A stretch of DNA of 64,000 nt from a virus. The notes under the pieces are model-generated. The model had not been told where the DNA came from. It worked only from the letters and a program-made list of their open reading frames with translations, and did not search any database. Location: IMG/VR virus record IMGVR_UViG_3300016476_001289, one strand, 5' to 3'. Shown one piece after another: positions 18,747 through 34,651 of this stretch. Every line of letters begins with the position of its first letter. Positions within the stretch are counted from its first letter, which is position 1. A program made the position numbers and the translations under genes.

Positions 18747-19361
18747 ATGATTAGTAAAAAGATCGCTTCTTTAGAAGAGCGTTTAGCTAGACTTGAAGCT
18801 AAATTAATCAATAAATTTGATTATCTAGAACCCATTGAAAAATCTAACTACAAGAAACATAAATCTATCAATAAATCCCTTTATCTAGAACCCATTGAAA
18901 AATCAGACTATAGAAAACATAAATCTATCAATAAATCTCTTTATCTAGAACCTATTGAAAATACTAAACATAAATTTATTGATAAATCTCTTTATGTAGA
19001 ACCCATTGAAAAATCAGACTATAGAAAACATAAATCTATCAATAAATCCCTTTATCTAGAACCTATTGAAAAATTCGATTATGTAGAACCTATTGAAAAA
19101 TCTAACTATAAGAAACATAAATCTATCAATAAATCCCTTTATCTAGAACCTATCTTAAAAAAAAGTTCATTTAAATCTATGGTTGAAATGATAGACCCTA
19201 GAACAAAAAGAGTAGAAGCAGTAGATACTTTAGATAGCTTCTATGAGAATAATATGGATGATGAAGAAGTAATAGAAGCTTTAGATGAATTGAAATCAGG
19301 TTTAAAGTCAGAAGTATTAGTCCCTACAGGACAAGGTTATTATATATTAAAGCTTAAATAG
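18747..19361 (+). CDS. KIASLE-leader family protein with tandem peptide repeats
   Basis: ATG 18747 after AAAGGA. MISKKIASLEERLARLEAKL followed by YLEPIEKS repeats. Confidence 0.8.
   Translation: MISKKIASLEERLARLEAKLINKFDYLEPIEKSNYKKHKSINKSLYLEPIEKSDYRKHKSINKSLYLEPIENTKHKFIDKSLYVEPIEKSDYRKHKSINKSLYLEPIEKFDYVEPIEKSNYKKHKSINKSLYLEPILKKSSFKSMVEMIDPRTKRVEAVDTLDSFYENNMDDEEVIEALDELKSGLKSEVLVPTGQGYYILKLK
18822..19154 (+). repeat. Coding tandem repeat, ~60-nt unit (YLEPIEKSxYxKHKSINKSL) with shortened units
   Basis: Seven Y[LV]EPI anchors. All length variants preserve the frame. Confidence 0.9.
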
Positions 19362-19365
19362 GATA

Positions 19366-19713
19366 TTATTTGCTGGAAGCCATATCTAATACGGACATAT
19401 CACCTACTACGGTAGCCATATCAATCACTACTGACATATCACCTGCTATAATTGATATATCCCCTACGATTGTAGCCATATCGCTTACTACAGTAGATTC
19501 CATATCAGTTGAAGAAGCCATATCACTTACGGACACATCAGCCATATCACTTACTTCGGTAACCATATCTGTAGAAGAAGCCATATCAACCACTATGGTA
19601 GACATATCAGAAGAAGTCATATCGGTGGTTGTAGCAACGGATTTAGTTTCTTTATCTCCACTACAAGCGAGAAACAAGAAAGCACTTAAAAGAATAGTAA
19701 ATAGAGTTTTCAT
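19366..19713 (-). CDS. Lipoprotein with Asp-Met (DM) low-complexity repeats
   Basis: Signal peptide MKTLFTILLSAFLFLAC, then recurring xDM/xDI every 5-8 residues. Confidence 0.8.
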   Translation of the reverse strand: MKTLFTILLSAFLFLACSGDKETKSVATTTDMTSSDMSTIVVDMASSTDMVTEVSDMADVSVSDMASSTDMESTVVSDMATIVGDISIIAGDMSVVIDMATVVGDMSVLDMASSK

Positions 19714-19838
19714 AACTAACACCTTTTATTAGAGTTTATGTATTACACAAAACATAAAGCATAAACAAAATATTCAATACTACTTTTATAAAGTAGTATA
19801 TATAAGTATAAACTTTTATAAACAAAAGGACTCATAAA

Positions 19839-20195
19839 ATGATTAGTTCAAAAATCGCTTCTTTGGAAGCAAGATTAGCCAGACTCGAAGGCAAATTAAT
19901 GAGCAAAAAAGCTTGGGGTAAAACTCTTGAAGAAGAAGTAATGCCTCAAGTTGAAGCTGGTATTGCCGATGCAGGTGGAGAAATTGTAGATGTTAAATTA
20001 CAAAAAGGTACACACAATAGATGTCAAATGACAATTATGACTCCCAGAGGGATGAAAAGTGTAACTTGGCAAGTATTTACTGACTATGGTTACAATGAAT
20101 ATCTGTTTGAAGTAAATAATAAGATTATTCCTTCTCTAGATGAAGTTTCAGGTTATGAACTTGGTCAATACCTTGTATTGAAGGCTAGAGGATAG
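19839..20195 (+). CDS. KIASLE-leader family protein
   Basis: MISSKIASLEARLARLEGKLMSKKA plus a unique domain. AAGGA RBS. Confidence 0.85.
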   Translation: MISSKIASLEARLARLEGKLMSKKAWGKTLEEEVMPQVEAGIADAGGEIVDVKLQKGTHNRCQMTIMTPRGMKSVTWQVFTDYGYNEYLFEVNNKIIPSLDEVSGYELGQYLVLKARG

Positions 20196-20736
20196 AATCA
20201 TCATCATCTTCATTAGAATGAAAATAATGATATTTACGATCTTCTTCTAAGAGTTTTTTATATTCCCCATCGTCTTCTTCTATTTCTTTTTCTAATTCTT
20301 CTATTAAGATCTCCCTTTCGAGCTTCTCGTAAAAGGCTGCTTCTCTCATCTCTTGTTCTATCATAGATCTGATTTCTTCTCTTTCTTCAAGAAGTTCTTT
20401 CAACTCACCAAAGATACATTTATCAAAAGCATAAGGAATAGGGTATGAAATCCACCTAGTAGTATTTTCTCTCTCAAAAGAATTACAGAAACCAGCATTT
20501 AATTGAAGACCAAATTTCTCAAGGATAGGAGAAATCTCACATTCTCTTAATGGACGGTCATAAATAGTCTCAGGTGGGGTGTAATTAGAAAATGGTTGTA
20601 GGTGAGAGATAAGATCTCTAAGGATTTCTGTTTTGAGAGATTGGTCTGGTAAATAATCAGTAGGTTGGAAGAAATATTCGTAATGGATATTATTGTGACT
20701 GAAACTAATCACAAAGTAAAGATGATTACTATTCAT
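20185..20736 (-). CDS. Hypothetical protein, paralog of 18185-18658
   Basis: PPETIYDRPL motif and acidic tail. Confidence 0.7.
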   Translation of the reverse strand: MNSNHLYFVISFSHNNIHYEYFFQPTDYLPDQSLKTEILRDLISHLQPFSNYTPPETIYDRPLRECEISPILEKFGLQLNAGFCNSFERENTTRWISYPIPYAFDKCIFGELKELLEEREEIRSMIEQEMREAAFYEKLEREILIEELEKEIEEDDGEYKKLLEEDRKYHYFHSNEDDDDSIL

Positions 20737-20790
20737 AGTATTCCTTTGTTGTGGGTTTATAATGTATTATATTAAGAGGAGAATAGTAAG

Positions 20791-21072
20791 ATGAAAGAAT
20801 TAGATGATTATGATGTTTTATTATGTTTGATCTACCATTTACATCCATTTTTAGTAATGGATGTAGCTAAAGAGATACATATAAAGCCTGAAGAATTAGG
20901 TTTTATCCTAAGTGTGTTTAAAGACCACCCTGTAATATTAAAGCATAAAGAAGAAGCATTAAAAAATGATAATTATATAAGAGATATGGTTATTGGTATA
21001 TTTGAAGGGACTATATATAAAGAGGCTATCCTTTCGCTCTTTCTCTTGAATGAATCCCCCAATAGAACATAA
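20791..21072 (+). CDS. Hypothetical protein
   Basis: 93-aa ORF with GAGGAG RBS. Confidence 0.6.
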   Translation: MKELDDYDVLLCLIYHLHPFLVMDVAKEIHIKPEELGFILSVFKDHPVILKHKEEALKNDNYIRDMVIGIFEGTIYKEAILSLFLLNESPNRT

Positions 21073-21799
21073 TTTTTAATCGGGGGCTTAAAAAAGGTGT
21101 AGCTTCTTCTGGATCTTCACTATAAGCTTCAATAGCGACATCGAAATCATCTTGAAATTTTTTACCTACATATTCTATAAGACTAGGGTTCTTTTTGACT
21201 GCTTCTAAGACAAGTATTTTACTTTGTTTTAAAGTAGGTGAAAGAAAGATAAAATTAGTGGGGTCTGCCTTAACACAAGCAAAGGCTATATCAAAATCAT
21301 CATTATAAGAATTAAGTAGTTTATCTAATAAGTGGATGGCATAACCTGAATCAGACATAATATTAAAATCATTTCTAATATAGATTTTAGGGTCATCACA
21401 TAAGGGAAGAATGAAGTTCTTATCTTTTAGTAGTTTTGTGGGTAATTTACTAAGAAATCTTGAATCTATTGAACAGATAAGATTAGCTTTCTTTTTAGTA
21501 GTAATAGTGAAGTGTTGGGATAAGAACCATTCCATATTATATAAGAAGATAGGTTCATTTAGTGCTATTTCAATAGGTGTTAAGTCCCAAGTTAGTTCTT
21601 CAGTATCTAAAACAAGATCATCATCATATTTATCTACATTAGTAGTAAAAACTTCTGTGATATCCAGAGAAGTACATAGTAGTTGAAGGACTTCCTTATC
21701 CTTAGGTTTAGCTAAGGTGTATAGGCAAATATCTCTATTTTCAATAGATTTTTCAAAGAGTATAACTTTCATATAGTCTATCTCACTTTCATTGAACAT
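21026..21799 (-). CDS. DUF4116-like repeat protein
   Basis: C-terminal repeats DFDIAFACVK / KILVLEAVKKNPSLIEYV / DDFDVAIEA. Confidence 0.65.
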   Translation of the reverse strand: MFNESEIDYMKVILFEKSIENRDICLYTLAKPKDKEVLQLLCTSLDITEVFTTNVDKYDDDLVLDTEELTWDLTPIEIALNEPIFLYNMEWFLSQHFTITTKKKANLICSIDSRFLSKLPTKLLKDKNFILPLCDDPKIYIRNDFNIMSDSGYAIHLLDKLLNSYNDDFDIAFACVKADPTNFIFLSPTLKQSKILVLEAVKKNPSLIEYVGKKFQDDFDVAIEAYSEDPEEATPFLSPRLKIMFYWGIHSRERAKG

Positions 21800-21817
21800 A
21801 TTATATGAAAGTGGAAA

Positions 21818-21895
21818 ATAAAAAAGGGAACATCTGTTAAGACATTCCCTTTTCTACAAAAAAACTAACCAACCAACACAAAAAAGTGTTTGTTA
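21818..21895 (-). ncRNA. Candidate small RNA or attenuated leader
   Basis: Bounded by a sigma70-like promoter and an intrinsic terminator, no ORF, 5' hairpin. Confidence 0.45.
21820..21849 (-). terminator. Intrinsic terminator
   Basis: On the minus strand: GGGAAUGUCU-UAAC-AGAUGUUCCC-UUUUUU. Two G.U pairs form only on this strand. Confidence 0.8.
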
Positions 21896-21900
21896 AAATG

Positions 21901-21929
21901 TTTATAGCATAACTTATATAAACTAGCAA
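21901..21929 (-). promoter_or_regulatory. Sigma70-like promoter
   Basis: Minus strand TTGCTA-N17-TATAAA with extended -10 TGn. Confidence 0.55.
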
Positions 21930-21946
21930 ATTTATTAAGAGAAAAA

Positions 21947-22150
21947 ATGTACGAGATGTTATTTATGGGGCAACCTATACTTGTTTATGATGTATCTAGT
22001 GCTATAAGAGAAGGTTTAGTCTTTAAGGTGAAACAAATAAGTCTATATAAGACAGGTGAAGATACCTTGTTTTTCTTAGAATTAAAGAGTGGGATACATT
22101 ATAAGATTTTATTAGAATATTTAGATAGTGGGTGGAAGATCGTTAAATAA
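21947..22150 (+). CDS. Hypothetical protein
   Basis: 67-aa ORF, weak RBS. Confidence 0.4.
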   Translation: MYEMLFMGQPILVYDVSSAIREGLVFKVKQISLYKTGEDTLFFLELKSGIHYKILLEYLDSGWKIVK

Positions 22151-22691
22151 GTTTATCTACAAGACCATGTTTTAAACATTCTTCTGAATTAAACCATAGG
22201 TCTCTTTTAAGCATTTTTACAATTTGTTTCTTTTTAAGTTTAGAGTGTTTTTTATAGAACTTATAAAATTGTTCCATGAGTTTATCTAGGTTTGCTTTTT
22301 CATCTTTAAGGTTTTCATAAGTGCCTTCAGTCCATTGACTTACTTGATGAATAAGCATATAGCCATATTCTTGCATGAATCTCTTCTTACCCACCATAGA
22401 CAATAAAGTACCTGCACTAGCGACACCACCTTCTACATAGGTATAAACAGGTACTTTATTATTTAAAATATGACCTGCCCCAGCAAGACCGCTATATACA
22501 TCACCACCATAAGAGTGGATATGTAGGTGGATAACGGGTGGGATTTCTAAATCATAGGTGAGTTGTCTATCTAGGGATAATTGAGTAGCTTCTCTTAAAG
22601 TGCTGACTAATCCTTGAATTGATTTAGGATTTACTTCATCATAATAGTAGATATGTAAGTCTTTTCTTGTGATACCAGAAGATTCTAACAT
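22143..22691 (-). CDS. clpP: ClpP-family serine protease
   Basis: IHSYGGDV, ASAG (Ser), LIHQ (His), RD.W (Asp), GLVD. Confidence 0.85.
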   Translation of the reverse strand: MLESSGITRKDLHIYYYDEVNPKSIQGLVSTLREATQLSLDRQLTYDLEIPPVIHLHIHSYGGDVYSGLAGAGHILNNKVPVYTYVEGGVASAGTLLSMVGKKRFMQEYGYMLIHQVSQWTEGTYENLKDEKANLDKLMEQFYKFYKKHSKLKKKQIVKMLKRDLWFNSEECLKHGLVDKLI

Positions 22692-22763
22692 TTAAAATAG
22701 CCTTTCTTTTATTTATTAAATACATAGCATATTTATGAAAAGTCTAAATTCAAGGAGCTATGT

Positions 22764-23816
22764 ATGTCATGTAAGATACCAGCAGGGTCAGTAGCGACCC
22801 TAGTACAAGGGAATAAAGTTCTCTTTGATGGTGTATTATACAATCTAGATGATTGTGTGATAGAAAAAGGTGTACATTTTGAGACAAAAGCTAATGTAAA
22901 AGAAGTAGGTGTCGATTCACCTAAATCCGAAGCTAATGAATCAAATGAACAAAAAACAGAAGAACCTAAACCTAAAAAGTTTAAGAAACCTGTTGTTAAA
23001 CCATCCTCAGTGGATGAAAATATTGAAAATACTCAAGTACCACAACCACAAAAAAAGGATGATGAAATGGGATTACCTGTTCAAGCACCTCAAGATTCTA
23101 CACCAGGACAAGGGCAACCTGTTCAACCTATACAACAACCTGTAGGTTATCCACAACAACCTATGCAACCACCTGTAAATATGCAACTTCCACAAGGGTA
23201 TGCTTTACCTCCAGGATTTACTGTTCCACAACAAGCACAACAATACATTCCACAACAATTCATGCCTCAACAACCACAAGAGACTCATGCCACCACTGAA
23301 CATAATCAAGATGGTATGGATATGAACATGATTAAGACTATCTTGAACATAGCAGGGGATAATCCTGTTGTTCTCGTAGCCTTAATTGGTGCATATCTAG
23401 GTTTCACCTGGATGAAGAAGATGGAAAAGATCAAAGAAAAAGAAGCTGAAAATGGTGGTCAACACGCATCAGCTTGTGATAGTGATCGTAAGAGTCTTAA
23501 TTCTAAATTCTCTGATATGGACTTTAAAGTTCAAAAAATCGATATGCTTGAAAATAAAGTTAAGCAAATGGGTGATGTTAATGGTCGTCTTACTAAACTT
23601 GAAGAAAATAGTAATGGTTTAACCTTTAATGACACCACAGAACTTGAAGAAGCTTTAGCTAAAGTAGTTAAGAAAGTAGAAGCTCTTGATAAGAAGATTG
23701 CGTCATTAGTTGCAGGAACAACAGCACCTAAAGCAGTAGAACCTGTTAAGAAACCTACTAAAGCTAAAGAAACTAAATCTGTTGCAGAATTTCCACCTGA
23801 AGAAGATGATGAATAA
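22764..23816 (+). CDS. Membrane-anchored protein with Pro/Gln-rich linker and C-terminal coiled coil
   Basis: PQ-rich tract, one hydrophobic helix (VVLVALIGAYLGFTW), heptad tail. AAGGAG RBS. Confidence 0.7.
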   Translation: MSCKIPAGSVATLVQGNKVLFDGVLYNLDDCVIEKGVHFETKANVKEVGVDSPKSEANESNEQKTEEPKPKKFKKPVVKPSSVDENIENTQVPQPQKKDDEMGLPVQAPQDSTPGQGQPVQPIQQPVGYPQQPMQPPVNMQLPQGYALPPGFTVPQQAQQYIPQQFMPQQPQETHATTEHNQDGMDMNMIKTILNIAGDNPVVLVALIGAYLGFTWMKKMEKIKEKEAENGGQHASACDSDRKSLNSKFSDMDFKVQKIDMLENKVKQMGDVNGRLTKLEENSNGLTFNDTTELEEALAKVVKKVEALDKKIASLVAGTTAPKAVEPVKKPTKAKETKSVAEFPPEEDDE

Positions 23817-23878
23817 TTTTATATAATCGTATTTCTTATTTGTATAGTATGAGTTGAACTTTTAAAAAAAGGAAACTC

Positions 23879-24634
23879 ATGTTAAAATATCTCCCTATAT
23901 TATTGTTTATGTTTGCTTGTTCTAAAAATGAAGCACAACCTGTTGTTGTTAAAGATCAAGGTATTGTTGTTGTAAAAGACAAGTCTCTACCACTCGATCA
24001 AAGTCTACCTGAAAAAGACCAAGAAGTTAAAGCAGTAGACCCTGACAAAAAACACCCAATCCCTGAAACTGTTGATTGTGAAAAGTTCTTTACTGCTGAG
24101 GGGATTGCAGAAGCACATAAAACCAATTCACCTTATATTGCCGACAAAGAATATTTCTTGATTGAAAAAAATGCTGACTATGTTTTAACATTAAGACTAG
24201 GTTATCTACCACAAGAAAAGTTCCTTGCTATTTTCATGACAACAGCGGGGAAGAAAAAAGTCTGTTATGATAAAGAAACATCACTCATGTTCACTCTTTT
24301 ACATGATGAAGATACTGGAGAGAGAAGAAGCTATATGCTAGATGGTATCCACAATCAAAATTGTGGTACTGCTCGTAAGGTTCAAGATAAGAACAAAGCA
24401 GTAGGCATTTACTTAGTGCCTGAAAGAAGTAAGTTCTTTCAGTTTGCTATGGTTGCAAGAAGTATAGGTGCTTGGGCAATTATGGAGCATAAGAATTATA
24501 AAGGTATTGTAGGTCAACATTATAGTGAAAACCATTCACTTGCTTTAATGAATGGTTTTAGATGTGCTTATAAAGCTATGGGGTATACTCATCTCACAGT
24601 AACAAATTTACTCGATAACACAGTGAAAGACTAA
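23879..24634 (+). CDS. Lipoprotein, paralog family member 1
   Basis: Lipobox MFAC. IP...DCEK and RCAY.A.G shared with the next two ORFs. Confidence 0.75.
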   Translation: MLKYLPILLFMFACSKNEAQPVVVKDQGIVVVKDKSLPLDQSLPEKDQEVKAVDPDKKHPIPETVDCEKFFTAEGIAEAHKTNSPYIADKEYFLIEKNADYVLTLRLGYLPQEKFLAIFMTTAGKKKVCYDKETSLMFTLLHDEDTGERRSYMLDGIHNQNCGTARKVQDKNKAVGIYLVPERSKFFQFAMVARSIGAWAIMEHKNYKGIVGQHYSENHSLALMNGFRCAYKAMGYTHLTVTNLLDNTVKD

Positions 24635-24637
24635 GCT

Positions 24638-25378
24638 ATGTATAAATATCTATTAATTGTTGTATGTTTATTCTCTTGTAATAAGCAAACAGAAGCTCAA
24701 GAGAAGCAACCTGAAGTTAAACAAACTCAAACGGAAGTTAAACAAACTGAACCTGTTAAAGTAGCAGAACCCGTTAAGGTTAAAAACGGCAGTCTTAATA
24801 TCCCTAAAGGTAAAGATTGTGAAAAGCATCTCCCTAAAGATGCCCTTAAACAAAGTAAAAAAAATGATGGATATTACATCCCTAAAGAATCTTTTTGGTT
24901 TGTGAATATGAAAGGCGAAGGTGTATTATTAGCTAATTTCACGGTTGTAGACATGAAATTAAAGTTCACAGTCAATCTCTTGAATGGTAATAAAGTTAAC
25001 TGTATTGAAGAGAATAGTGATCTTGGTATTAGATTTAATAAACATCAAATCCATATCCTTGAATCTAAGTTCCCAAGAAACTGTAATGACCCAAGCAAAA
25101 CAGAGGAAAGAGTCGGTGCTATGGCTATTTATACACTTCCTTTAAATAGCACTCTTTTTAAAGAACTCTTATTAAAACCTGTTGAGTTTTTAGGTATAGA
25201 ATTAAAAGGAAAAGGGTATGCTTTTTTTCAAGTTACGAAAGAAGAAACCCCTATCGAACTACAAAATGCTGCTAGATGTGCTTATGAAGCATTTGGTGGA
25301 GCAGATCAAATTAACTTAGAAGATGAGGATTTCTTAATAGATACTCTAGCACATCCAGATGAAAATTCAAACGAGTAA
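24638..25378 (+). CDS. Lipoprotein, paralog family member 2
   Basis: Lipobox LFSC. IPKGKDC, PLNSTLFKELL, LQNAARCAY. Confidence 0.8.
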   Translation: MYKYLLIVVCLFSCNKQTEAQEKQPEVKQTQTEVKQTEPVKVAEPVKVKNGSLNIPKGKDCEKHLPKDALKQSKKNDGYYIPKESFWFVNMKGEGVLLANFTVVDMKLKFTVNLLNGNKVNCIEENSDLGIRFNKHQIHILESKFPRNCNDPSKTEERVGAMAIYTLPLNSTLFKELLLKPVEFLGIELKGKGYAFFQVTKEETPIELQNAARCAYEAFGGADQINLEDEDFLIDTLAHPDENSNE

Positions 25379-25379
25379 A

Positions 25380-26015
25380 ATGATGAAATACTATTTATTA
25401 ATGATTCTTATTGTTGTCTCTTCTTGTAAGGACAAAGAAAAAGTTAGTATCCCTAAAGGAAAAGACTGTGATGTCTATTTCCCACAAGATGCTATGGCTC
25501 AAAGTAAAAAAAATAATAACTTCTTTATTAATGAAAGAAGATCTATTTACACTGGAGATGAAGGGATCTTATTAACTAATCTCCTTATCAAAGACACTAA
25601 ATTCCACCTAGCTATTAATATCTTAAATGGTAATAAAGTCATTTGTATAAAAGAAAATAGTCTTCTTGGTGTAAGAATATTTGAAAATAATAACACCCAT
25701 TTAATCAAAGGCGATTTTGACAGAAATTGTAAACAACAATCTGACCCTAAAGGTAATGGGGCAATAGGATTATTTGAAGTTCCTTTAAATAGCACTTTAT
25801 TTAAAGAACTCCTAACAAAAAAAGTAGGTGTCATTGGTGTAGGTTTAGATAATGTTAATGCTTTATTTAAGCCATTAGACCAAGAAACTGCTTTAGATTT
25901 ACAAAATGCTGCTAGATGTGCTTATGATGCTTTTGGTGGAGAAGAGACTATTAATTTATCTAATGATAATCTTCTTATAGACACTGTTTATCATGTAGAT
26001 AAGCCAAACGATTAA
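25380..26015 (+). CDS. Lipoprotein, paralog family member 3
   Basis: Lipobox VSSC, same motifs as member 2. Start reassigned to 25380. Confidence 0.8.
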   Translation: MMKYYLLMILIVVSSCKDKEKVSIPKGKDCDVYFPQDAMAQSKKNNNFFINERRSIYTGDEGILLTNLLIKDTKFHLAINILNGNKVICIKENSLLGVRIFENNNTHLIKGDFDRNCKQQSDPKGNGAIGLFEVPLNSTLFKELLTKKVGVIGVGLDNVNALFKPLDQETALDLQNAARCAYDAFGGEETINLSNDNLLIDTVYHVDKPND

Positions 26016-26439
26016 TAATCTTTTTATAGATATAGATATATAGATATAAACATAACATAATAAGGAGTCTCCCATGAGATACCCACATATAACCAGAAGA
26101 GCTAGTTCTTTTTATTCACGAAGAGCTTCAGCTTCAGCTCCCTATGCAAAATGGAATCATGAAATCTTGAATATCAAAGAAGAAACCTATGTGTTTTTAG
26201 ATGAAGCTTTGAAAAAAATCGCTAGATTGAATAATGAATTAGTTCAAACCGCAGTCGAAGCGCAAGATCCAGAAGTTAAAAAAATCCTTAATTCTTTATT
26301 AAAATTGTATCAAACCTACCAAACTTCTCTCTATGAGAAAGCAGGTGATATACAAGAAGATTTAGGAAATGAAGTTGGTCATTCTTGGTAATATCTTCTT
26401 ATAGATATTGCTTATCATGTAGATAAGCCAAACGATTAA
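25969..26439 (+). repeat. 47-bp direct repeat pair (25969-26015 and 26393-26439) flanking one gene
   Basis: atcttcttatagaYaYtgYttatcatgtagataagccaaacgattaa, 44/47 identical. Confidence 0.9.
26074..26391 (+). CDS. Small helical protein with RRAS-repeat N-terminus
   Basis: TAAGGAG RBS. MRYPHITRRASSFYSRRASAS. Confidence 0.75.
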   Translation: MRYPHITRRASSFYSRRASASAPYAKWNHEILNIKEETYVFLDEALKKIARLNNELVQTAVEAQDPEVKKILNSLLKLYQTYQTSLYEKAGDIQEDLGNEVGHSW

Positions 26440-26671
26440 ATATAAAATTTAATAATTCAACATTTCCTTTCTGACTATTTACTAGATACTCTACATAATC
26501 TAATCTTCTAGGGTCTTCTTCTTTTTTAAGACATAAACCTGCATATAAAACGATTAGATCAAAGTATTTGGTATTAACATTTAATTCAGTAAGACTCTTT
26601 TCTATATCTAACTTTCTTAAACTTCGTAAGAATTGTGCTTCATATTGAAGTTGTCTTTCTCTTGTGTACAT
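26399..26671 (-). CDS. Hypothetical protein
   Basis: 90-aa ORF with AAGGA RBS, downstream of the MTase genes. Confidence 0.6.
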   Translation of the reverse strand: MYTRERQLQYEAQFLRSLRKLDIEKSLTELNVNTKYFDLIVLYAGLCLKKEEDPRRLDYVEYLVNSQKGNVELLNFIFNRLAYLHDKQYL

Positions 26672-26682
26672 AGAGATTTCCT

Positions 26683-27438
26683 TTAAAATAGAGTGGATGC
26701 TTCACCTTGTATATAATTACAAGCTAGTTTATAATATGTAGGATCTAATTCTATCCCTACTGATTTTCTATTTAATCTTTGTGCTTCTATAAGAGTTGTC
26801 CCTGATCCTGTAAAAGGATCAAAAATAGTGTCTCCTACAAAACTAAAGTATTTAATACACCTATAAGGTAAATCAGATGGGAATGGTGCAGGGTGCTTTC
26901 TATGTGTAGCTGATTCAGGTTTCATTTTCCATAAACCATTAGACCATGAAACAAATTCTTCACCTGTAATATCATCTTCACGCTTAATAGCTTTTTTCCA
27001 AGAATCTTTATAGAAAACAAGAATAAGTTCAGTAGGAGATATAATCAAAGGTGCAGATGCTGATTTATATGACCCCCATGCTGTCCCACCTTCAAAATAG
27101 CCTTTATCCCAAATAACATCACATTTATACTTCCAACCTATTTCTTTAGCTATGTAGCATAAATCGGGACCTATAGTCTTAGAACCACCTAATGTGGTGG
27201 AAAATGGAATATTTAAACACAAACGACCTGTTGTATTACTCCAATCATAACAATTCTTTAACCATTTACGACTAAACTCTAAATACTCATCATATTGTAG
27301 AGTGTCATCATTTGAATTATATTCAATCCCAACATTATAAGGTGGGGATGTTATAATAAGATCAATAAATGGTTCTTGAAATAAAGAACTATCCGTACAA
27401 TCTCCATGATATAACTTCACATCTCTAAACTCAAACAT
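26683..27438 (-). CDS. DNA methyltransferase, beta class (SPPY, N4-C/N6-A)
   Basis: TSPPYN, HPAPFP, DPFTGSGTT. Confidence 0.9.
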   Translation of the reverse strand: MFEFRDVKLYHGDCTDSSLFQEPFIDLIITSPPYNVGIEYNSNDDTLQYDEYLEFSRKWLKNCYDWSNTTGRLCLNIPFSTTLGGSKTIGPDLCYIAKEIGWKYKCDVIWDKGYFEGGTAWGSYKSASAPLIISPTELILVFYKDSWKKAIKREDDITGEEFVSWSNGLWKMKPESATHRKHPAPFPSDLPYRCIKYFSFVGDTIFDPFTGSGTTLIEAQRLNRKSVGIELDPTYYKLACNYIQGEASTLF

Positions 27439-27470
27439 TCTTAAATGTCCTTTCTTTTTCTTGTCTTATA

Positions 27471-28235
27471 TTAAAATAATGTTTGTTGCTTTACATTTTC
27501 TTCATTTAACCATACCACTTCATTAAACTCTTTCATTTGGCAATTTAATATTGTCTTTAAAGGTTTAAAGGGCAACCATGTTGCTTTTTCTCCCTCACAG
27601 ACTATTACTTGCCCCTCTCTTCCTTTACACCATTCACCTAAATGACTAAAATCTATTTTATTAGATGAATGAGCATATCCCTTACCTTCATGTTGATAAG
27701 GTGGGTCGATAAACCAAGTAGCTTGTTCATTATCTATATCTTCATAAGACTTTTGTTCTATTGTCCAATGACGAATATGTTCTAATTGTTCTGCTATTTT
27801 AATCTTATTTAATTCAGTCCATGTGTTATAATTTCTAGGTTTATATACTTCACCTGATTTAGATATAAATCCTTGAACTGATTTCATACTACGACTTGTC
27901 CATTTAGTATCAGGTCTATAATTAGATGAATGTATCCAATAACCTATTAACCATTTAGCTTCTTGGGGGATATTATAATCATTGACTGATTTGTCAAAAT
28001 CTATCATAGGCAAGTCTAAGATTTCTTCTTTCTTAGCATGGATAAGATAATCCCACAGACCACAGATAACATCATATTTGTCATATAACTTAACTTGTTT
28101 ATGTGGGTAATGTAAGGCATAACAAGCAGACCCTGCAAATGGTTCTATTAGTATATTATGTTTAGGTGAAGGGTAGTGTTTAGCTAAATTATATTTACTA
28201 CCAAAGTAGCTAAAAAATGGTTTAAGTGGTTTCAT
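27471..28235 (-). CDS. Dam-like (alpha class) DNA adenine methyltransferase, copy 1
   Basis: YFGSK, EPFAGSA, FIDPPY. Confidence 0.85.
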   Translation of the reverse strand: MKPLKPFFSYFGSKYNLAKHYPSPKHNILIEPFAGSACYALHYPHKQVKLYDKYDVICGLWDYLIHAKKEEILDLPMIDFDKSVNDYNIPQEAKWLIGYWIHSSNYRPDTKWTSRSMKSVQGFISKSGEVYKPRNYNTWTELNKIKIAEQLEHIRHWTIEQKSYEDIDNEQATWFIDPPYQHEGKGYAHSSNKIDFSHLGEWCKGREGQVIVCEGEKATWLPFKPLKTILNCQMKEFNEVVWLNEENVKQQTLF

Positions 28236-28295
28236 TTTTTTTCCTTTATAGGATGAATATATATAATGTTAAACTATTATTATAGGAGATATACC

Positions 28296-28727
28296 ATGAT
28301 TAACTCAAAAATCGCTTCATTAGAAGCAAGATTAACTAGACTCGAAGGCAAATTAATGAGCAAAAAAGCAGGACATCAAATGCCTGACCCTGCTCTCGTA
28401 AAATTTCAAATCAAGACCCTTTTAAAAGAAGGTGCATATCAATTAGAAGGTTTTGAAGTTAAAGCATTAAGCCCACTTTCTTACTTTCCTGCTACCCATG
28501 CCATTCGTATTGTATGTATTAATGATCAAGGTAATTCAGTTGTACTTGATCTTCATTGTAGCAACAATGTAATTGTTGGACAAACATTGAATGTTTTCGA
28601 TCATATGTATAATACTAAAGTTGTTTATAATAACAGCAATGAAGATTTAGGTGGAGATTTTATTGGTGAAGATTTAACCAAACCAAGTACCGTAAGAGAT
28701 CTTATCAGTTTATTACAATTACAATAA
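28296..28727 (+). CDS. KIASLE-leader family protein
   Basis: ATG 28296 after AGGAG. MINSKIASLEARLTRLEGKLMSKKA. Confidence 0.85.
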   Translation: MINSKIASLEARLTRLEGKLMSKKAGHQMPDPALVKFQIKTLLKEGAYQLEGFEVKALSPLSYFPATHAIRIVCINDQGNSVVLDLHCSNNVIVGQTLNVFDHMYNTKVVYNNSNEDLGGDFIGEDLTKPSTVRDLISLLQLQ

Positions 28728-28731
28728 ACCA

Positions 28732-29466
28732 TTAGAATAAAGTTCTTTGTCTTATATTATTCTCATTTAACCATACCACCTCTTCAGTCCTACCACCTCC
28801 ACTATTTAATATCGTCTTTAAAGGTTGAAAAGGTAACCATTTAGCTTTATCACTTTCACAGACTATTACTTGTCCTTCTCTTCCTTTACACCATTCACCT
28901 AAATGACTAAAATCTATATTCTTTGAACTCTCTTTATAGACTTTCCCTTCACTCTCATAAGGTGGATCTATAAACCATGTAGCTTCTTCATTATCTATTA
29001 TATCATAAGACTTTTGTTCTATTGTCCAATGTCTTATATCATCCACCTGATTTGCTATTCTTTTCTTAGTAGTAGGATTCCAAGAATCTGCCCATTCTAT
29101 TTCAAATCTCTCACTAGCATAAGATGACATTTTAGTAGCAGGTATAGACCTAGCTTTAACTAACCAAAATCCTATTAACCATTTAGCTTCTTGTGGGATA
29201 TTAGGATAATCATCTATACTCTTACCTAATTCTATTAAAGGTAAATCTAATATCTCTTCTTTTTTCACCTTAATTAAGTAATCCCATATCCCACAAATAG
29301 CATCATATTTGTCATATAACTTAACTTGTTTATAGTGATAATGAAGAGCATAACAAGCAGATCCTGCAAAGGGTTCTATTAGAACATTGTATCTAGGTGA
29401 AGGATAATGTTTAGCTAAAAAGTATTTACTACCAAAATAGCTAAAAAATGGTTTAAGGGGTTTCAT
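28732..29466 (-). CDS. Dam-like DNA adenine methyltransferase, copy 2
   Basis: Close paralog of copy 1 with a different central region. Confidence 0.85.
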   Translation of the reverse strand: MKPLKPFFSYFGSKYFLAKHYPSPRYNVLIEPFAGSACYALHYHYKQVKLYDKYDAICGIWDYLIKVKKEEILDLPLIELGKSIDDYPNIPQEAKWLIGFWLVKARSIPATKMSSYASERFEIEWADSWNPTTKKRIANQVDDIRHWTIEQKSYDIIDNEEATWFIDPPYESEGKVYKESSKNIDFSHLGEWCKGREGQVIVCESDKAKWLPFQPLKTILNSGGGRTEEVVWLNENNIRQRTLF

Positions 29467-29526
29467 TTTTTTTCCTTTTATTTTATATCTAAGAATATAT
29501 GAAACTATTATTATAGGAGATATACC

Positions 29527-29931
29527 ATGATTAACTCAAAAATCGCTTCTTTAGAAGCAAGATTATCTAGACTCGAAGGCAAATTACAAAGAAGAATTGC
29601 TTCATCTTTCCCAACGAGAGAAGAATTTATAGAACTATTAGAGAGAAATTCTAGAGGTTGGTTCTCTAATTGGACTTGGATGGAAGGATTTAGTGATGGA
29701 CTACCCACAGAATATAAAAAGAGTATAGTTATGGGAGTACCTTCAAATAATGAAAGATTGTCGGTTACTCTTCTTTTTACTGAAGCTTTTGCTAAAGGCA
29801 CAATAACAATTAGAATTACCACCTTAAATGCAGATTTTAAAAAGAACCTTAAAACAGTACAATATAATTTAGATGATTTTTATACAACAGATGTAAATCA
29901 TCTTCTTGACACAATAAAAAGCATGATGTAA
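29527..29931 (+). CDS. KIASLE-leader family protein
   Basis: MINSKIASLEARLSRLEGKLQRRIAS. AGGAG RBS. Confidence 0.85.
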   Translation: MINSKIASLEARLSRLEGKLQRRIASSFPTREEFIELLERNSRGWFSNWTWMEGFSDGLPTEYKKSIVMGVPSNNERLSVTLLFTEAFAKGTITIRITTLNADFKKNLKTVQYNLDDFYTTDVNHLLDTIKSMM

Positions 29932-29937
29932 TTTGTC

Positions 29938-29965
29938 TTTACTCTATTTAAATTTATAGAGTAAA
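29938..29965. terminator. Hairpin, probable terminator
   Basis: TTTACTCTAT-N8-ATAGAGTAAA perfect 10-bp stem just after the stop. Confidence 0.45.
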
Positions 29966-30003
29966 ATGGTGATTTCCTGTATAATATTTTCAGAAGACTT
30001 TCT

Positions 30004-30360
30004 ATGTTTAAAACTACTCAAATAAATGATTTTATCATCACCGATTTTATAGACGATTCTCAATATAAATATGTTTTAGGCGACTTACACGATTTAGATT
30101 GGGAAATGTCTTTATCAGGTGCTTGGTTTCAAGCTATTCTATTTTGTAATAAGTTAAGTGAAATTTATAATTTACCTTATGCTTATCTTGTATTTAAAGA
30201 TGAAAAAGGTAATTTGGAAGCTGAAGATACAGGTAAAAATGGAATAAGACTACCAAGTCCAAAACTTCAAATCTCTTTATATGAAGATGAATTAACTGAA
30301 GAGAATGATAAAGGTAATAGATTTAGGGTGTGGATGTATTCTTCTCAACCCAGTAATTAG
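30004..30360 (+). CDS. Reduced FGE-sulfatase (SUMF1)-like domain protein
   Basis: WFQAILFCNKLS...LPYAY...NGIRLPS resembles the WxxAxxFCNxLS..GYRLPT core. Confidence 0.55.
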   Translation: MFKTTQINDFIITDFIDDSQYKYVLGDLHDLDWEMSLSGAWFQAILFCNKLSEIYNLPYAYLVFKDEKGNLEAEDTGKNGIRLPSPKLQISLYEDELTEENDKGNRFRVWMYSSQPSN

Positions 30361-30775
30361 CACCTCTTCTAGCAGAATCTTTATTTTTATATCCCACCAT
30401 AGTTGCTATTTCTGACCATTTAAGTCCTTTTTCTCTTAATTCAAAAGCAACTCTTCCTCTACTTTTTCTTGTATTTTCTATTTCTATTCCTGTTCTATCT
30501 CTATATTTATAAAAGTTATCTCTAAGAGTTCTAATGGGCATACCTAATAATCTTGCTATATCTTTATGAGTCATACCAAGTTTTGCGAGGGTGTTCGCAT
30601 ACTCTATCATTTTGCTATTATTTGGCTTATTTAGGTTATTTAAAACTTCCCATTTGTATGCTTTTCGCCTAGCATTTCTATCACTGATGCCTAAAACTTC
30701 ACCTACTTCGATCCATTTCATACCTTGAGATTTTAACTCATAAGCTAATTTCCACCCTTCATAATCAGCTTTCAT
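30323..30775 (-). CDS. Protein with three tandem helix-turn-helix units
   Basis: GMKWIEVGEVLG / GMTHKDIARLLG / GLKWSEIATMVG. Confidence 0.75.
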   Translation of the reverse strand: MKADYEGWKLAYELKSQGMKWIEVGEVLGISDRNARRKAYKWEVLNNLNKPNNSKMIEYANTLAKLGMTHKDIARLLGMPIRTLRDNFYKYRDRTGIEIENTRKSRGRVAFELREKGLKWSEIATMVGYKNKDSARRGANYWVEKNTSTP

Positions 30776-31062
30776 TTCTCAATCCCCTTTATAGCTTCAT
30801 ATATGTTTCTATATGTTTCTGTATTCTCACCACACTCAACGACAACTTTTTTAATTGCCTGTCCCTTATAATCAAAAGTCATGTTATATAAAGTATAACC
30901 TATATTAAAATCTACTTTTATGATTTCAATGTTAGGTGGTTTTATTTCACTTTCTGATTTAAGGATATTAGCACCAAGTTGGGTTTTTAAAATGCGAGGT
31001 ATAGCATTTTTATGGCTATATACACCTATGTTGTAAGGTATATTAATATTATTGACTTTCAT
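30772..31062 (-). CDS. Hypothetical protein
   Basis: 96-aa ORF coupled (ATGA) to the HTH gene. Confidence 0.55.
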   Translation of the reverse strand: MKVNNINIPYNIGVYSHKNAIPRILKTQLGANILKSESEIKPPNIEIIKVDFNIGYTLYNMTFDYKGQAIKKVVVECGENTETYRNIYEAIKGIEK

Positions 31063-31076
31063 ATCTACACTTCCTT

Positions 31077-31427
31077 GTGAGATTTACGATGAATATGAGT
31101 GAACAAAAAAAACTTTTTGAACATATCTTTAATACCACAGAGGGTATTACATTACTAGATGTTGTTGTATTACCTAGTGTTTTATCAGGTGACACGACCC
31201 ATCAAATTAGAGTTGAGTATAAAAACCCTAAAGGACTAACCGTATTAAATGTGAATATAGATGAGATACTTATTAAAGAAGTAATTATAAGAGTCCATCA
31301 AGGTGGTAGATTACCTTATGGTGAATATACTAAAGGCAAAGTTATAACAAAACTAGGTGATTTTAGAGGTAAGAAAATTAAAACAGATGTGATAGACAAG
31401 TTAGCTTATGAGTGTTCTTATACTTAA
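31077..31427 (+). CDS. Hypothetical protein (start uncertain)
   Basis: ORF with several possible starts, first of a + strand run. Confidence 0.5.
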   Translation: MRFTMNMSEQKKLFEHIFNTTEGITLLDVVVLPSVLSGDTTHQIRVEYKNPKGLTVLNVNIDEILIKEVIIRVHQGGRLPYGEYTKGKVITKLGDFRGKKIKTDVIDKLAYECSYT

Positions 31428-31472
31428 TTTATAGAAAAAGATAGGTGAACTATAAAATGAGTGAACTTGTAA

Positions 31473-31808
31473 ATGAAAAGATTTGCTAGACTAGAAAATC
31501 GTATATCTCAAATAAAGTACGACACTTTATTCTATTACTTAAAATTAAAATTAGATACAGGCATTCTTGTGTTGGAAGATTTAACTACACATGAGAATTC
31601 TTTATATATGAGATATGGTTATGATAAAATATGTCTGTATATTTACATAGAAAATTCTAGTAATGTCGTAGGGTATATAGATATATATATGAAGTATCAA
31701 CCTGATAATTTAAAAAGTGCTTTTCCCATATCTTTACCTATATCTAATATAGATGGGATAGCTAAGGTGATAGCAACTAAAATAAACAAGTATTTAGAAA
31801 CTCACTAA
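31473..31808 (+). CDS. Degenerate-leader family protein, cargo paralogous to 31856 ORF
   Basis: MKRFARLENRI. SLY..Y, LY..I.NS....G..DI and SLP...I..I...I..K.N.Y are shared with the next ORF. Confidence 0.65.
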   Translation: MKRFARLENRISQIKYDTLFYYLKLKLDTGILVLEDLTTHENSLYMRYGYDKICLYIYIENSSNVVGYIDIYMKYQPDNLKSAFPISLPISNIDGIAKVIATKINKYLETH

Positions 31809-31855
31809 TTAGTTTATATACATATTGTTAGAAGTACATATAGGAGAGATATAAA

Positions 31856-32305
31856 ATGATTCGTAATAAAATTGCTTCTCTTGAAGCTCGTTTAGCTAGA
31901 CTTGAAAATAAGTTAGCAGCTAAACAAGTTGACTATAACTTATGGCAACTTTACGAAAAGCTAGTAAGAGAACTAGAAACTGAAGGCTATTATACTGATA
32001 GAGATTCTTTCACTTTTGAAAGTATCGCTTCACCTGATGGTTCTTTATATGTTCAATATAAAGGTAATAATGTTGTTGCTTATGATAATGAAGATGCTCC
32101 TTATGGTGAATATGGAGATGCCTTATTATATGTAAATATCAAAAACTCTATGAGAAGTCCAGGTTTTGTAGATATTAGTATTGCCCCAAGTCTTCGTGAT
32201 TTATCCCACACTCGAATGGTCTCTAGTCTTCCATCAACGGATATAGTTAAGATCAGTCAATTCATCCAAAATAAAATGAACACTTATATTCATTCCCTAT
32301 CTTAA
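31856..32305 (+). CDS. KIASLE-leader family protein
   Basis: MIRNKIASLEARLARLENKLAAK. AGGAG RBS. Confidence 0.85.
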   Translation: MIRNKIASLEARLARLENKLAAKQVDYNLWQLYEKLVRELETEGYYTDRDSFTFESIASPDGSLYVQYKGNNVVAYDNEDAPYGEYGDALLYVNIKNSMRSPGFVDISIAPSLRDLSHTRMVSSLPSTDIVKISQFIQNKMNTYIHSLS

Positions 32306-32320
32306 AAAAGGAGATATCAA

Positions 32321-32860
32321 ATGATTCGTAATAAAATTGCGTCATTAGAAGCTCGTTTAGCTAATTTAGAAGCTAAACTCAGAAAGAAAGCAGCTATAGA
32401 AGTCGATCTATTTCATCTTTTTTTGAAACTACTAAACAAATTACAAGGCTCTTTCAAAGCAGAAGAAGAGTATAATGACCCTAATGCGTATGATGATAGT
32501 GTTTGGGGGACTCCTTATGATAATTATGATCCCACAGTTATCGTAAGATCTACATTTAAAAGAGTATCCGCTGATGATACCTCTTTATATATTGAATATT
32601 CTATGGTAATTGAGGACCCTTTGACTACCTATAGAAGCAAAGGAGAGAAGAGTCCTACTTTATATATCCATATCTTTAAAGAGGGTTTGGATCTAAAAAT
32701 CGAAACAGATTCAGAGCCTATTACCCCTTCTACAAAGAATGTAAAAAAAATATGGGGTCCAAAAACCATACCTTCCAATTTCCAATCCGTTTTAGAAGAG
32801 ATAGAAGAAGATATGAAAGACCTTCTAGAAAAAGAAGATTTTCCTCTTTTAAAAAAATAA
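32321..32860 (+). CDS. KIASLE-leader family protein
   Basis: MIRNKIASLEARLANLEAKLRKKAA. AGGAG RBS. Confidence 0.85.
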   Translation: MIRNKIASLEARLANLEAKLRKKAAIEVDLFHLFLKLLNKLQGSFKAEEEYNDPNAYDDSVWGTPYDNYDPTVIVRSTFKRVSADDTSLYIEYSMVIEDPLTTYRSKGEKSPTLYIHIFKEGLDLKIETDSEPITPSTKNVKKIWGPKTIPSNFQSVLEEIEEDMKDLLEKEDFPLLKK

Positions 32861-32898
32861 TATCTTTCTAACACAACCTAAAAAAAGAGACATTTAAA

Positions 32899-33363
32899 AT
32901 GATTCGTAATAAAATTGCTTCTCTTGAAGCTCGTTTAGCTCAACTTGAAAAAAAAGCAGGTATCTTTCAAAACTATGGACAACTATCACCTTTAAATAAG
33001 ATGATGGTTGATTTACAAGAAGAAGGTAGACAAAGAAAATTAGAGACTTCTTCGGGTAGTGTAGAAGCCAATTACTTTTTATATAAATTATTTGAAAAAG
33101 TAGAGCTTTACTCTAATTATGATCTTGAAACAAAAGCTTCTCGTAATGCCGATGTTTTAATTGCTACACATAGTAGTGATGATACCCAAAACGAAATTAA
33201 AATTTCCTTGAAAATAGATCACTGGGGAAAAGAAGTAGTATCTGTATTTGTTCGCCCTGAAAGAAGACCCTCTTCTTCTTTTGAAGTAAGTATTAATGAC
33301 TCCGATCTTGCTAAAAAAATAGCAAAAACCTTAGACATTAAGCTACAAGAAGTTATGTACTAA
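32899..33363 (+). CDS. KIASLE-leader family protein
   Basis: MIRNKIASLEARLAQLEKKAG. Confidence 0.85.
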   Translation: MIRNKIASLEARLAQLEKKAGIFQNYGQLSPLNKMMVDLQEEGRQRKLETSSGSVEANYFLYKLFEKVELYSNYDLETKASRNADVLIATHSSDDTQNEIKISLKIDHWGKEVVSVFVRPERRPSSSFEVSINDSDLAKKIAKTLDIKLQEVMY

Positions 33364-33364
33364 A

Positions 33365-33446
33365 AACCTATTGTTCAAAAACAGCACTTTTTGAACATTA
33401 CATATAACCTATTGTTCAAAATTGCCACTTTTTGAACATTACATAT
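33365..33446. repeat. Two tandem 41-bp units, each a TGTTCAAAA..TTTTGAACA inverted repeat
   Basis: Directly visible between convergent genes. The units differ only at the loop and inner stem edge. Confidence 0.85.
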
Positions 33447-33789
33447 ATTCTTTCTCTATAAGTCCTATTAAATTATTCAATGTCACACTCACTTCTTTAA
33501 GTTCTGTGTTCCCTATAAACTTAGCTACTGTAAATACTTGATTCTTTACATTTAGAACTTCTTTTAACTCAGGCTTCTTTGTCACTGTTTCTAAGTCTTC
33601 TAATATCGCATTTACAGGTGATAAATAATCTTGTTCATATAATTGATCCATGTGAGCATTAATGTGTGTGATTACATTATTCTTTACAGCATATTGTAAA
33701 GACCAACAATCATCAAAAGACATCATTGAATTTACCATGTCTCTTAAATTAAATAAATGCTCATAGAGTTCTTCATTCTTTAAAGTCAT
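33439..33789 (-). CDS. Hypothetical protein
   Basis: 116-aa ORF with AAAGGA RBS. Confidence 0.6.
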   Translation of the reverse strand: MTLKNEELYEHLFNLRDMVNSMMSFDDCWSLQYAVKNNVITHINAHMDQLYEQDYLSPVNAILEDLETVTKKPELKEVLNVKNQVFTVAKFIGNTELKEVSVTLNNLIGLIEKEYM

Positions 33790-33845
33790 TTTTAATAAAT
33801 CCTTTCTTATAGGTATATAGAAGTATATACATAGGAGTTAAAAAT

Positions 33846-34199
33846 ATGTGGTTCGTTTATGTAATACAATCCCACCAAAAAAGATACAATAAAAAAGGAA
33901 CTAAAGAATTACCAGGTTTCTATTATGTAGGTTGCACTGTTGATCTTAATAGAAGACTTAGGCAACATAATGGTGAAATAGTTGGTGGAGCTAAATTTAC
34001 ATCTCAATATAGACCCTGGTCTCCAAGAGCTGTTTATGGTCCTTATCCAAATAGGTCTATCGCTATGAAAGCAGAAAAAGCTCTTAAATCTAAGAGGGGT
34101 ATATCAAGAACACAATGGACTTTAGAAGATAGTAAATATTGTTGTGGTCCAGGTGTTGAACACGAATGGGTTATTCTTAATAATAAGTCTATAACTTAA
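33846..34199 (+). CDS. GIY-YIG endonuclease, Slx1-like
   Basis: FVY..YVG.T....RRLRQHNG...GGAK.T...RPW....E. Confidence 0.85.
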   Translation: MWFVYVIQSHQKRYNKKGTKELPGFYYVGCTVDLNRRLRQHNGEIVGGAKFTSQYRPWSPRAVYGPYPNRSIAMKAEKALKSKRGISRTQWTLEDSKYCCGPGVEHEWVILNNKSIT

Positions 34200-34228: not shown

Positions 34229-34651
34229 ATGAATCACTTAAAAATTGCTAGTCTTGAAGATAGAATTGCAAGACTAGAAAAAAAACTTATGAAAAAATCT
34301 TTCTTCAATACTATGTTGAGTCGTGAATTACAAAGATTCTCAGATGATTTTATGGAAGCTGCTAATTATTCTGGTGGGGATTCTACTATGAAAATCATTA
34401 ACCACCCAAACCAAGAAGATAGTGATTTGGTTTTTGAATATGTTCTTCAACCCGAAGGACATAACCCACTAACTTTCTATATCAAAGTAGATACTCAAGA
34501 AGTCCAAAGAGGATTATATGAAATAATAGTTTCTAGAAGTCCCTACTTTAACAAAATGCCCTTCAATATCCTTTTACCCCTAGATGTAAAGAAATTATAT
34601 ACAAAAGTAATAATGAACTTAGAACATTGGTTTATATCAAGAAAAATTTAA
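34229..34651 (+). CDS. KIASLE-leader family protein
   Basis: MNHLKIASLEDRIARLEKKLMKKS. AGGAG RBS. Confidence 0.85.
   Translation: MNHLKIASLEDRIARLEKKLMKKSFFNTMLSRELQRFSDDFMEAANYSGGDSTMKIINHPNQEDSDLVFEYVLQPEGHNPLTFYIKVDTQEVQRGLYEIIVSRSPYFNKMPFNILLPLDVKKLYTKVIMNLEHWFISRKI

Follow-up and report, generated by a model that had tools for sequence, protein, structure and literature searches.

The internal proteins (Ip) of phage T4 have nothing in common except an N-terminal capsid targeting sequence (CTS), and the hypervariable loci that encode them rank with the most variable of T-even genomes (PMC3012670, PMC12373910, PMC2839356). The T4 leader loads each protein into the prohead core, the prohead protease trims it, and the cargos are injected as anti-restriction proteins (PMC3012670, PMC12373910, PMC2839356). 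Shuffling of the T4 internal proteins has been tied to promoter and stem-loop elements at these loci, not to the leader DNA (PMC2839356). In the PeSL cassettes of T4-type phages, short conserved sequences flank variable genes and recombine modules among close relatives (PMC2839356, PMC4122927). In the giant phages phiKZ, 201phi2-1 and SPN3US, many head proteins lose N-terminal propeptides of 20 to 254 residues to a prohead protease, which recognizes a three-residue motif with several sites in scaffold-like proteins (PMC10052503, PMC5694885); in SPN3US such propeptides are removed from many head and ejection proteins (PMC10052503). Here we describe a gene family in a 64,000-nucleotide (nt) stretch of viral DNA (IMG/VR record IMGVR_UViG_3300016476_001289, hereafter the window) in which a constant N-terminal leader of 20 residues precedes variable cargos. 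On balance, we consider it fairly probable that this leader is a capsid-addressing propeptide whose DNA doubles as a recombination handle.

The window consists of DNA with 31% guanine plus cytosine (GC), and sequencing runs from 11 studies, predominantly freshwater and estuary metagenomes, contained near-identical DNA. A megablast search of a deposited phage collection (50,697 phage records) with 17-36 kb of the window returned no match. The protein of gene 28296 (genes are named here by their first position) recurs letter for letter on a 371,667-bp contig, and approximately 30 open reading frames (ORFs) of the window share 30-78% amino-acid (aa) identity, in rearranged order, with G001, a 316,221-bp IMG/VR genome of 31% GC that is rated complete. 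Because of this contig match and the relatedness to G001, we assign the window, by sequence comparison, to an uncultured huge phage. When a conserved neighbouring protein of 341 aa was used as the query for related loci, G001 was the sole relative returned.

A six-frame scan of the window with the motif M-x-x-x-K-I-A-S-L-E-x-R-[LI]-x-x-L-E identified exactly eight full leaders, all on the plus strand, with start codons at 18747, 19839, 28296, 29527, 31856, 32321, 32899 and 34229, and a ninth, decayed copy at 31473. The genes, together with a duplicated methyltransferase that accompanies two of them, are as follows.

18747 to 19361, plus strand: leader gene 1, with a MISKK leader (18747-18806), a repeat tract (approximately 18798-19142) and a conserved small C-terminal cargo.
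19839 to 20195, plus strand: leader gene 2, with a MISSK leader and a singleton cargo.
27471 to 28235, minus strand: methyltransferase copy 1 of a duplicated unit (methyltransferase, intergenic region and leader), with approximately 77% nt identity to 28732-29466.
28271 to 28355, plus strand: ribosome-site-plus-leader block of leader gene 3, with a near-identical twin at 29502-29586.
28296 to 28727, plus strand: leader gene 3, with a MINSK leader and a cargo of cluster 1.
28732 to 29466, minus strand: methyltransferase copy 2, the duplicate of 27471 to 28235.
29527 to 29931, plus strand: leader gene 4, with a MINSK leader and a singleton cargo, in a polymorphic slot.
31473 to 31808, plus strand: decayed member with the 3' half of the leader only and a cargo paralogous to that of 31856.
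31856 to 32305, plus strand: leader gene 5, with a MIRNK leader.
32321 to 32860, plus strand: leader gene 6, with a MIRNK leader and a cargo distantly related to that of 31856.
32899 to 33363, plus strand: leader gene 7, with a MIRNK leader.
34229 to 34651, plus strand: leader gene 8, with a MNHLK leader, the most divergent; it has an ortholog in locus L075 and is absent in loci L033 and L061.

The preliminary description of this DNA had recognized two leader subtypes, MI[SN]SK and MIRNK. Both are present (MISSK in one gene, MINSK in two and MIRNK in three), and MISKK and MNHLK add further subtypes, so the division into two was too narrow. The true start of gene 18747 is the ATG at 18747, with the AAGGA of the family approximately 13 nt upstream. 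Its repeat tract at 18798-19142 is basic, is built of units such as LEPIEKS.YKKHKSINKS and lies between leader and cargo; the tract is missing from 87-aa orthologs (at least six samples), and its copy number varies in run X9 (19103 joined to 18915). The leader remnant of gene 31473 is ARLEN, written with the same codons, and the gene is absent from loci L006 and L061.

To describe the leader beyond the window, we searched nucleotide and protein collections. A degenerate leader DNA pattern found 7 copies in G001 (none with the reversed-pattern control) and 44 metagenome loci, several of them on contigs of 275-340 kb. A profile built from 68 N-termini gave 84 matches (E ≤ 0.001) among 1.84 billion representative proteins. 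In approximately 65-70 of these 84, the leader stood exactly at residue 1 of a protein of 30-260 aa; the remaining matches were internal coiled-coil repeats. All sources of the family were low-GC phage contigs, the largest of 275-372 kb, mostly from freshwater and estuary samples. The consensus, M-[IF]-x-x-K-[IL]-A-S-L-E-A-R-[IL]-A-[RK]-L-E-x-x-L, spans 20 residues or approximately 60 nt, with S8, L9, E10, R12, L16 and E17 invariant and hydrophobic residues at positions 2, 6, 9, 13, 16 and 20, the pattern of a regular heptad helix. Across genomes, each invariant residue is written with 2-4 synonymous codons (Ser8 with TCA, TCT, TCC or AGT; Leu9 with CTT, TTA, CTC or TTG; Arg12 with CGT or AGA), and because of this codon variety we conclude that selection maintains the leader peptide and not an RNA or DNA element. 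No curated family in Pfam or PHROGs covers the leader, nor the cargos with the exception of one DUF4116; we found no publication on the leader, although no literature search was aimed at the leader itself.

The leader DNA also contains a 5-bp inverted repeat, GCTTC-N4-GAAGC, formed by the codons for Ala7-Ser8 and Glu10-Ala11 and located in the window at 19855-19872, 28312-28329, 29543-29560, 31874-31887 and 32917-32930. Of 66 distinct leaders, 55 have it without a mismatch; it was scored as terminator-like on the minus strand. We rejected this hairpin as a selected feature: gene 34229 keeps the peptide with an AGT serine codon, and synonymous variation is free elsewhere. Since 34229 breaks the hairpin, the inverted repeat is probably a by-product of the codons. 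As a separate observation, two adjacent small proteins of G001 (149825-150537; L022 9825-10537, minus strand) start with MYSQR and carry three RLA|S or KKA|S-type sites in their first 30 residues. Their start resembles a second leader type, and they adjoin two genes with KIASLE-type leaders.

The proteins behind the leader were diverse. Eighty leader proteins fell into 33 cargo clusters (BLASTP, 1e-4), and profile-profile comparison of these clusters gave a probability above 40% for 2 of 528 pairs. Within the window only the cargos of 31473, 31856 and 32321 were detectably related (31473 versus 31856, BLASTP E = 4.7e-6), and a single fold for all cargos of the 31-35 kb region was rejected on this ground. 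Pfam gave no match for 64 representatives save the one DUF4116, PHROGs gave only noise for ten family proteins at E ≤ 0.1, and a Protein Atlas look-up of the 28296 protein gave no usable match. The structural model of the 28296 family consisted of a helix at residues 3-22, disorder at 21-29 and then an alpha-beta4-alpha domain (mean predicted local distance difference test score, pLDDT, 70), while the model of the widespread 18747 cargo had a helix at 2-22, a break at 22-24 and then beta2-alpha2-beta2 (pLDDT approximately 85). The two cargo domains differ in topology, and Foldseek searches of both models against PDB and BFVD found nothing at E ≤ 0.001, the top match being cystatin-like (E = 0.08). 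The cargos are themselves modular: the small domain of 18747 is found by itself, in duplicate or joined to a second C-terminal domain (L044, L050, L051 187-756, L060), and in L034 (11667-12074) that second domain stands alone behind the leader.

We then considered what the constant peptide may do. The motif [KR]-x-A-[SGAT] was found at residues 18-30 in 58 of 68 distinct leader proteins and six times in 7,563 cargo residues, and both cargo models had their lowest confidence exactly at this region. As modelled, the succession of helix, short conserved site and flexible linker has the layout of a cleavable propeptide. The ORF of G001 that is richest in the motif encodes an acidic coiled-coil protein of 694 aa (12 sites compared with 3.9 expected from shuffles); the head maturation protease (phrog_18299) is encoded on one side of it and the major head protein (phrog_2522) on the other. 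The protease contains three [KR]-x-A-[SGAT] sites, and residues 27-30 of the major head protein read K-L-A-S. This enrichment around the G001 head module is circumstantial but fits the T4 model. Searches of G001 for Pfam T4 gp21 protease, T4 gp23 and HK97 capsid found no match; the controls for the first two were also silent. The head module itself (G001 285973-295130; L029) comprises, in this order, a portal-sized ORF of 1266 aa, the head maturation protease (289836-291320), the 694-aa scaffold-like protein, an ORF of 223 aa and the major head protein, and the scaffold-like protein contains four EIKALKKANAQLRMAKKSE-type repeats.

From these features we lean towards the view that the leader is a capsid-addressing propeptide and the cargos are packaged, and we can only infer that the cargos enter the virion. 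The leader would dock its protein in the prohead during assembly and would then be cut off at [KR]-x-A|[SG] by the head maturation protease, and the cargos would be accessory proteins delivered with the DNA, like the T4 internal proteins. A cytoplasmic coiled-coil module for oligomerization or docking (dimers, trimers or a hub other than the prohead), with the basic-x-Ala segment merely a linker, is an unlikely alternative, although it draws on the regular heptad (I2, I6, L9, L13, L16, L20), on weak coiled-coil noise in Pfam such as TolA_bind_tri, and on the position of the leader genes outside the head module. Such a module has no need to occupy residue 1 strictly in all of approximately 65 clusters, nor to be followed by a motif that shows about 100-fold depletion in cargos and enrichment in a relative's scaffold-like protein. 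More doubtful still is a leader that addresses its proteins elsewhere, be it secretion or the membrane, a phage-built compartment or degradation. An N-terminal, portable and conserved tag on unrelated small proteins would suit such a role, but the leader is amphipathic and charged and lacks the hydrophobic core of a signal peptide, lipoproteins encoded in the window carry signal peptides of the ordinary kind, and nothing here points to a nucleus-forming phage.

To examine the leader at the DNA level, genes were compared without gaps, registered on the ATG, in windows of 15 nt. Background identity in this AT-rich DNA was approximately 3-6 of 15, and chance was excluded for the leader matches. 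The preliminary description had claimed that DNA similarity among the leader genes stops at the end of the leader, and our analysis reproduced this for every pair it named. Genes 19839 and 28296 were identical at 68 of 75 coding nt (13+13+13+15+14), followed by 7, 5 and 0 matches per 15. Genes 28296 and 29527 were identical at 25/25 positions upstream and 58/60 coding nt, followed by 7, 3 and 4 per 15, and 31856 and 32899 were identical from position -4 through codon 14 (42 coding nt). Similarity reached background after approximately codon 20-25. The longest exact runs between leaders were up to 46 nt. Genes 28296 and 29527 belong to a larger duplication, which also covers the minus-strand methyltransferase. 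Inside it, the ribosome-site-plus-leader block is 85/90 identical (94%) compared with approximately 77% for the methyltransferases; a diverged stretch of 30 nt separates methyltransferase and block, and the sequence is random from the base after the block.

At synonymous sites the leaders of the window form two tight groups. In the group formed by 19839, 28296 and 29527, 15-17 of 17-18 synonymous codons were identical although the cargos are unrelated, and 31856 and 32899 shared 15 of 16. Synonymous identity was 0.9 or more within the groups and approximately 0.5 between them, compared with 0.46 expected from the codon usage of the window. Each genome has its own ribosome-site-plus-leader dialect across unrelated cargos: four leader genes of G001 carry the same 20 nt upstream and approximately 57 coding nt, and the nearest leader to that of 28296 is its paralog 29527, not its ortholog. 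Orthologs of 31856 matched at 386/387 and 381/387 nt of the cargo and at 56/60 and 52/60 of the leader (Fisher, P = 0.0013 and P = 0.0001). The reverse pattern was observed for 32321, with 58/60 in the leader and 74% in the cargo, and for 32899, with 60/60 and 91%. Homogenization of leaders by gene conversion, as had been suggested, is supported by the synonymous near-identity within groups, by the closer match of the 28296/29527 leader block than of the methyltransferases, and by the decoupled divergence of the 31856 leader and cargo; synonymous sites in leaders are not as diverged as in cargos.

Related loci provided natural variants of the same arrangement, in which slots between flanks 85-96% identical to the window held different cargo or none. 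In locus L051 the 19839 slot contains a cargo of 190 aa, unrelated to the 118-aa cargo of the window, and this allele was found on at least nine contigs from at least six samples, with the gene order of window 18185-22691. Upstream of it, 59 of 60 nt match the window, as do the first 26 nt of the leader; the leader then switches its synonymous dialect from GCA-AGA-TTA-GCC to GCT-CGT-TTA-GCT, the cargo differs, and homology returns one base after the stop codon. In L033 the 29527 slot contains a different cargo of 129 aa; homology covers the methyltransferase and 63 nt of the leader, breaks off there and is found again 60 nt past the stop codon. Over window 18185-18791/18806, L034 and L060 match at 93-96%, after which both have another cargo in the 18747 slot. 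Orthologous slots in syntenic loci thus do not always carry the same cargo, and exchange of cargo behind the same leader was seen at the 19839, 29527 and 18747 slots.

Loss and rearrangement of cargos were also observed. L006, approximately 92% identical to the window and syntenic with 30027-34173, lacks the 32321 cargo, and the junction falls inside the ribosome-site-plus-leader repeat; its second gene joins the upstream region of 32321 to the 3' leader and cargo of 32899. The L006 ortholog of 31856 (P0001) combines a MISSK leader with the ARLEN codons of 31473 and a 98% identical cargo. A search of contigs from sequencing runs showed that the 29527 slot is empty (29463 joined to 30000) in runs X2, X3, X5 and X9, which are four runs of four studies, as it is in L061. 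One run contained a deletion joining 31428 to 33426, whose left end is the boundary of the 31429-33365 deletion of L061, together with a joint beginning inside the 18747 leader, variable copy number of the 18747 repeat tract and a duplication of gene 28296. The proposal that the leader block captures or swaps cargo is thus upheld for swap and loss; that the family also takes in foreign domains is conjectural.

It is very unlikely that the variant alleles are metagenome assembly chimeras formed at the repeated leader. The exact runs shared by leaders and the occurrence of L006 and L033 as single contigs would fit such an origin, but the L051-type allele was recovered by several assemblers with constant gene order, L034 and L060 are concordant, and the empty 29527 form, found in L061 and in the four studies, has a junction outside any repeat. 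Equally improbable, and already contradicted by the sequence comparisons, is a history without recombination, in which purifying selection, clearly acting on the leader peptide, keeps leader and ribosome site alike while cargos diverge fast and the edge is a selection boundary: synonymous sites are near-identical within groups and approximately 50% identical between groups of the same genome, flanks of 85-96% identity surround dissimilar cargos of different length, the codon dialect switches inside the leader, and the 31856 cargo is 99-100% identical between strains with a different leader.

Taken together, the sequence relationships make it highly probable that the leader DNA is a site of recombination. 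The ribosome-site-plus-leader block of approximately 85 nt acts as a dispersed DNA repeat; homologous recombination between its copies, within a genome or between co-infecting relatives, deletes or duplicates cassettes, places other cargo behind a resident leader and converts leaders into one another, with the consequence that leaders are alike by genome and neighbourhood and not by cargo.

Several observations weigh against the combination of capsid-addressing propeptide and recombination handle. The leader genes are surrounded by methyltransferase, helix-turn-helix (HTH) and nuclease genes and are not in the head module. Genes 19839, 34229 and 18747 have no clean [KR]-x-A-[SGAT] directly after the leader, and the putative cleavage motif of the protease was deduced from its abundance in one relative's scaffold-like protein. 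The 31429-33365 block, the 29527 cassette and gene 34229 are also gained or lost whole, with junctions at stop codons or in intergenic DNA; because several of these junctions (31428/33366, 29463/30000) fall outside the leader, the leader is not the sole route of cargo turnover. Breakpoints in the 3' part of the leader are partly expected under any replacement mechanism, since homology is detectable only where sequence is conserved, and the single-contig alleles of L006 and L033 may be assembly chimeras at the repeat.

Two neighbouring genes were considered as possible partners of the leader genes.

33846 to 34199, plus strand: GIY-YIG nuclease gene (Pfam GIY-YIG), encoding 117 aa with the GIY-YIG domain only.
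22143 to 22691, minus strand: ClpP-type protease gene (Pfam CLP_protease, 4.8e-25).

The distance between a GIY-YIG gene and a leader gene is 0-90 nt in the window, in G001 (45438-45761, single copy) and in L075, L059, L063, L052, L039 and L053, and within 2-9 kb in seven more loci. By analogy with the homing-type nucleases of T4, the nuclease may seed recombination in leader arrays, which we offer as a lead only. The ClpP-type protease is a possible processing enzyme and not the best candidate, because a different protease is encoded in the head module of G001. Other phage-type genes of the window encode a tail-fibre-like protein with a Mtd_N domain, a structural protein (phrog_697) and an NAD ligase, and several DNA methyltransferases are also present. 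One of these, of 251 aa (26683-27438), is missing from L061, where homology skips from 26671 to 27464; methyltransferase content thus also differs between strains. The 350-aa protein encoded at 22764-23816 is rich in Pro and Gln in its N-terminal half, has a single hydrophobic segment and contains KKIASL in a coiled coil at its C terminus; it is 60% identical to a G001 protein. L075 (613-1229) has approximately 618 extra nt between the convergent genes 34229-34651 and 34648-35217 (window 34648/34651).

If the leader is a packaging address, approximately 70 small-protein families become candidate injected factors for host takeover or anti-defence, and the leader becomes a short tag that could be moved onto foreign proteins to bring them into such capsids. 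A broader view, that a clade of huge phages runs a delivered-protein cassette system in which one address helix, cut at [KR]-x-A by the head protease, brings any small domain into the capsid and its own DNA is the crossover site for exchange, loss and re-tagging of cargos, perhaps aided by the adjacent GIY-YIG nuclease, is a possibility that we hold tentatively; if true, the tag would read out the injected-effector repertoire of uncultured huge phages from sequence. Whatever the leader's function, the locus offers a clean case in nature of leader-coding DNA that also serves as a recombination handle, with breakpoints that can be mapped within a few codons in population data.

Compared with known systems, the leader genes show partial likeness to each. 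Polymorphic toxins (CdiA with VENN, Rhs with PxxxxDPxGL) and integron cassettes likewise have a conserved junction that allows exchange of unrelated cargo modules. What stays constant in those systems is either a large delivery protein or attC with its integrase, whereas here it is only a 20-residue leader, with no dedicated recombinase evident. As in PeSL cassettes, a short conserved sequence outside the cargo serves as the putative recombination site; a PeSL, however, is an intergenic promoter plus stem-loop, and the repeat described here is a ribosome site plus coding leader. We found no excess of sigma-70-like promoters (77 promoter-like sites compared with 89 ± 9 in shuffles) and no excess of terminators, the terminator-like matches being mostly the GCTTC-N4-GAAGC of the leader on the opposite strand. 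In phiKZ, 201phi2-1 and SPN3US the propeptides have no single portable leader in common, and the last residue of the motif is Glu (A-x-E), in contrast to the one conserved tag found here on approximately 70 clusters. Searches of PHROGs, Pfam and the phage collection found no homology to the T4 CTS or Ip families. The T4 leader has approximately 10 residues and is cut at L/I-x-E, whereas the leader described here forms a heptad helix of 20 residues that closes with [KR]-x-A-[SGAT], in an unrelated huge phage, with breakpoints that can be placed inside the leader DNA itself. The features shared with the T4 CTS and Ip1-3 (of which more than 30 further variants exist) are a short conserved leader at the N terminus of unrelated small proteins and the hypervariability of the gene loci among close strains. 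By these sequence comparisons, the leader system appears to work like the T4 CTS and internal proteins without being a member of them.

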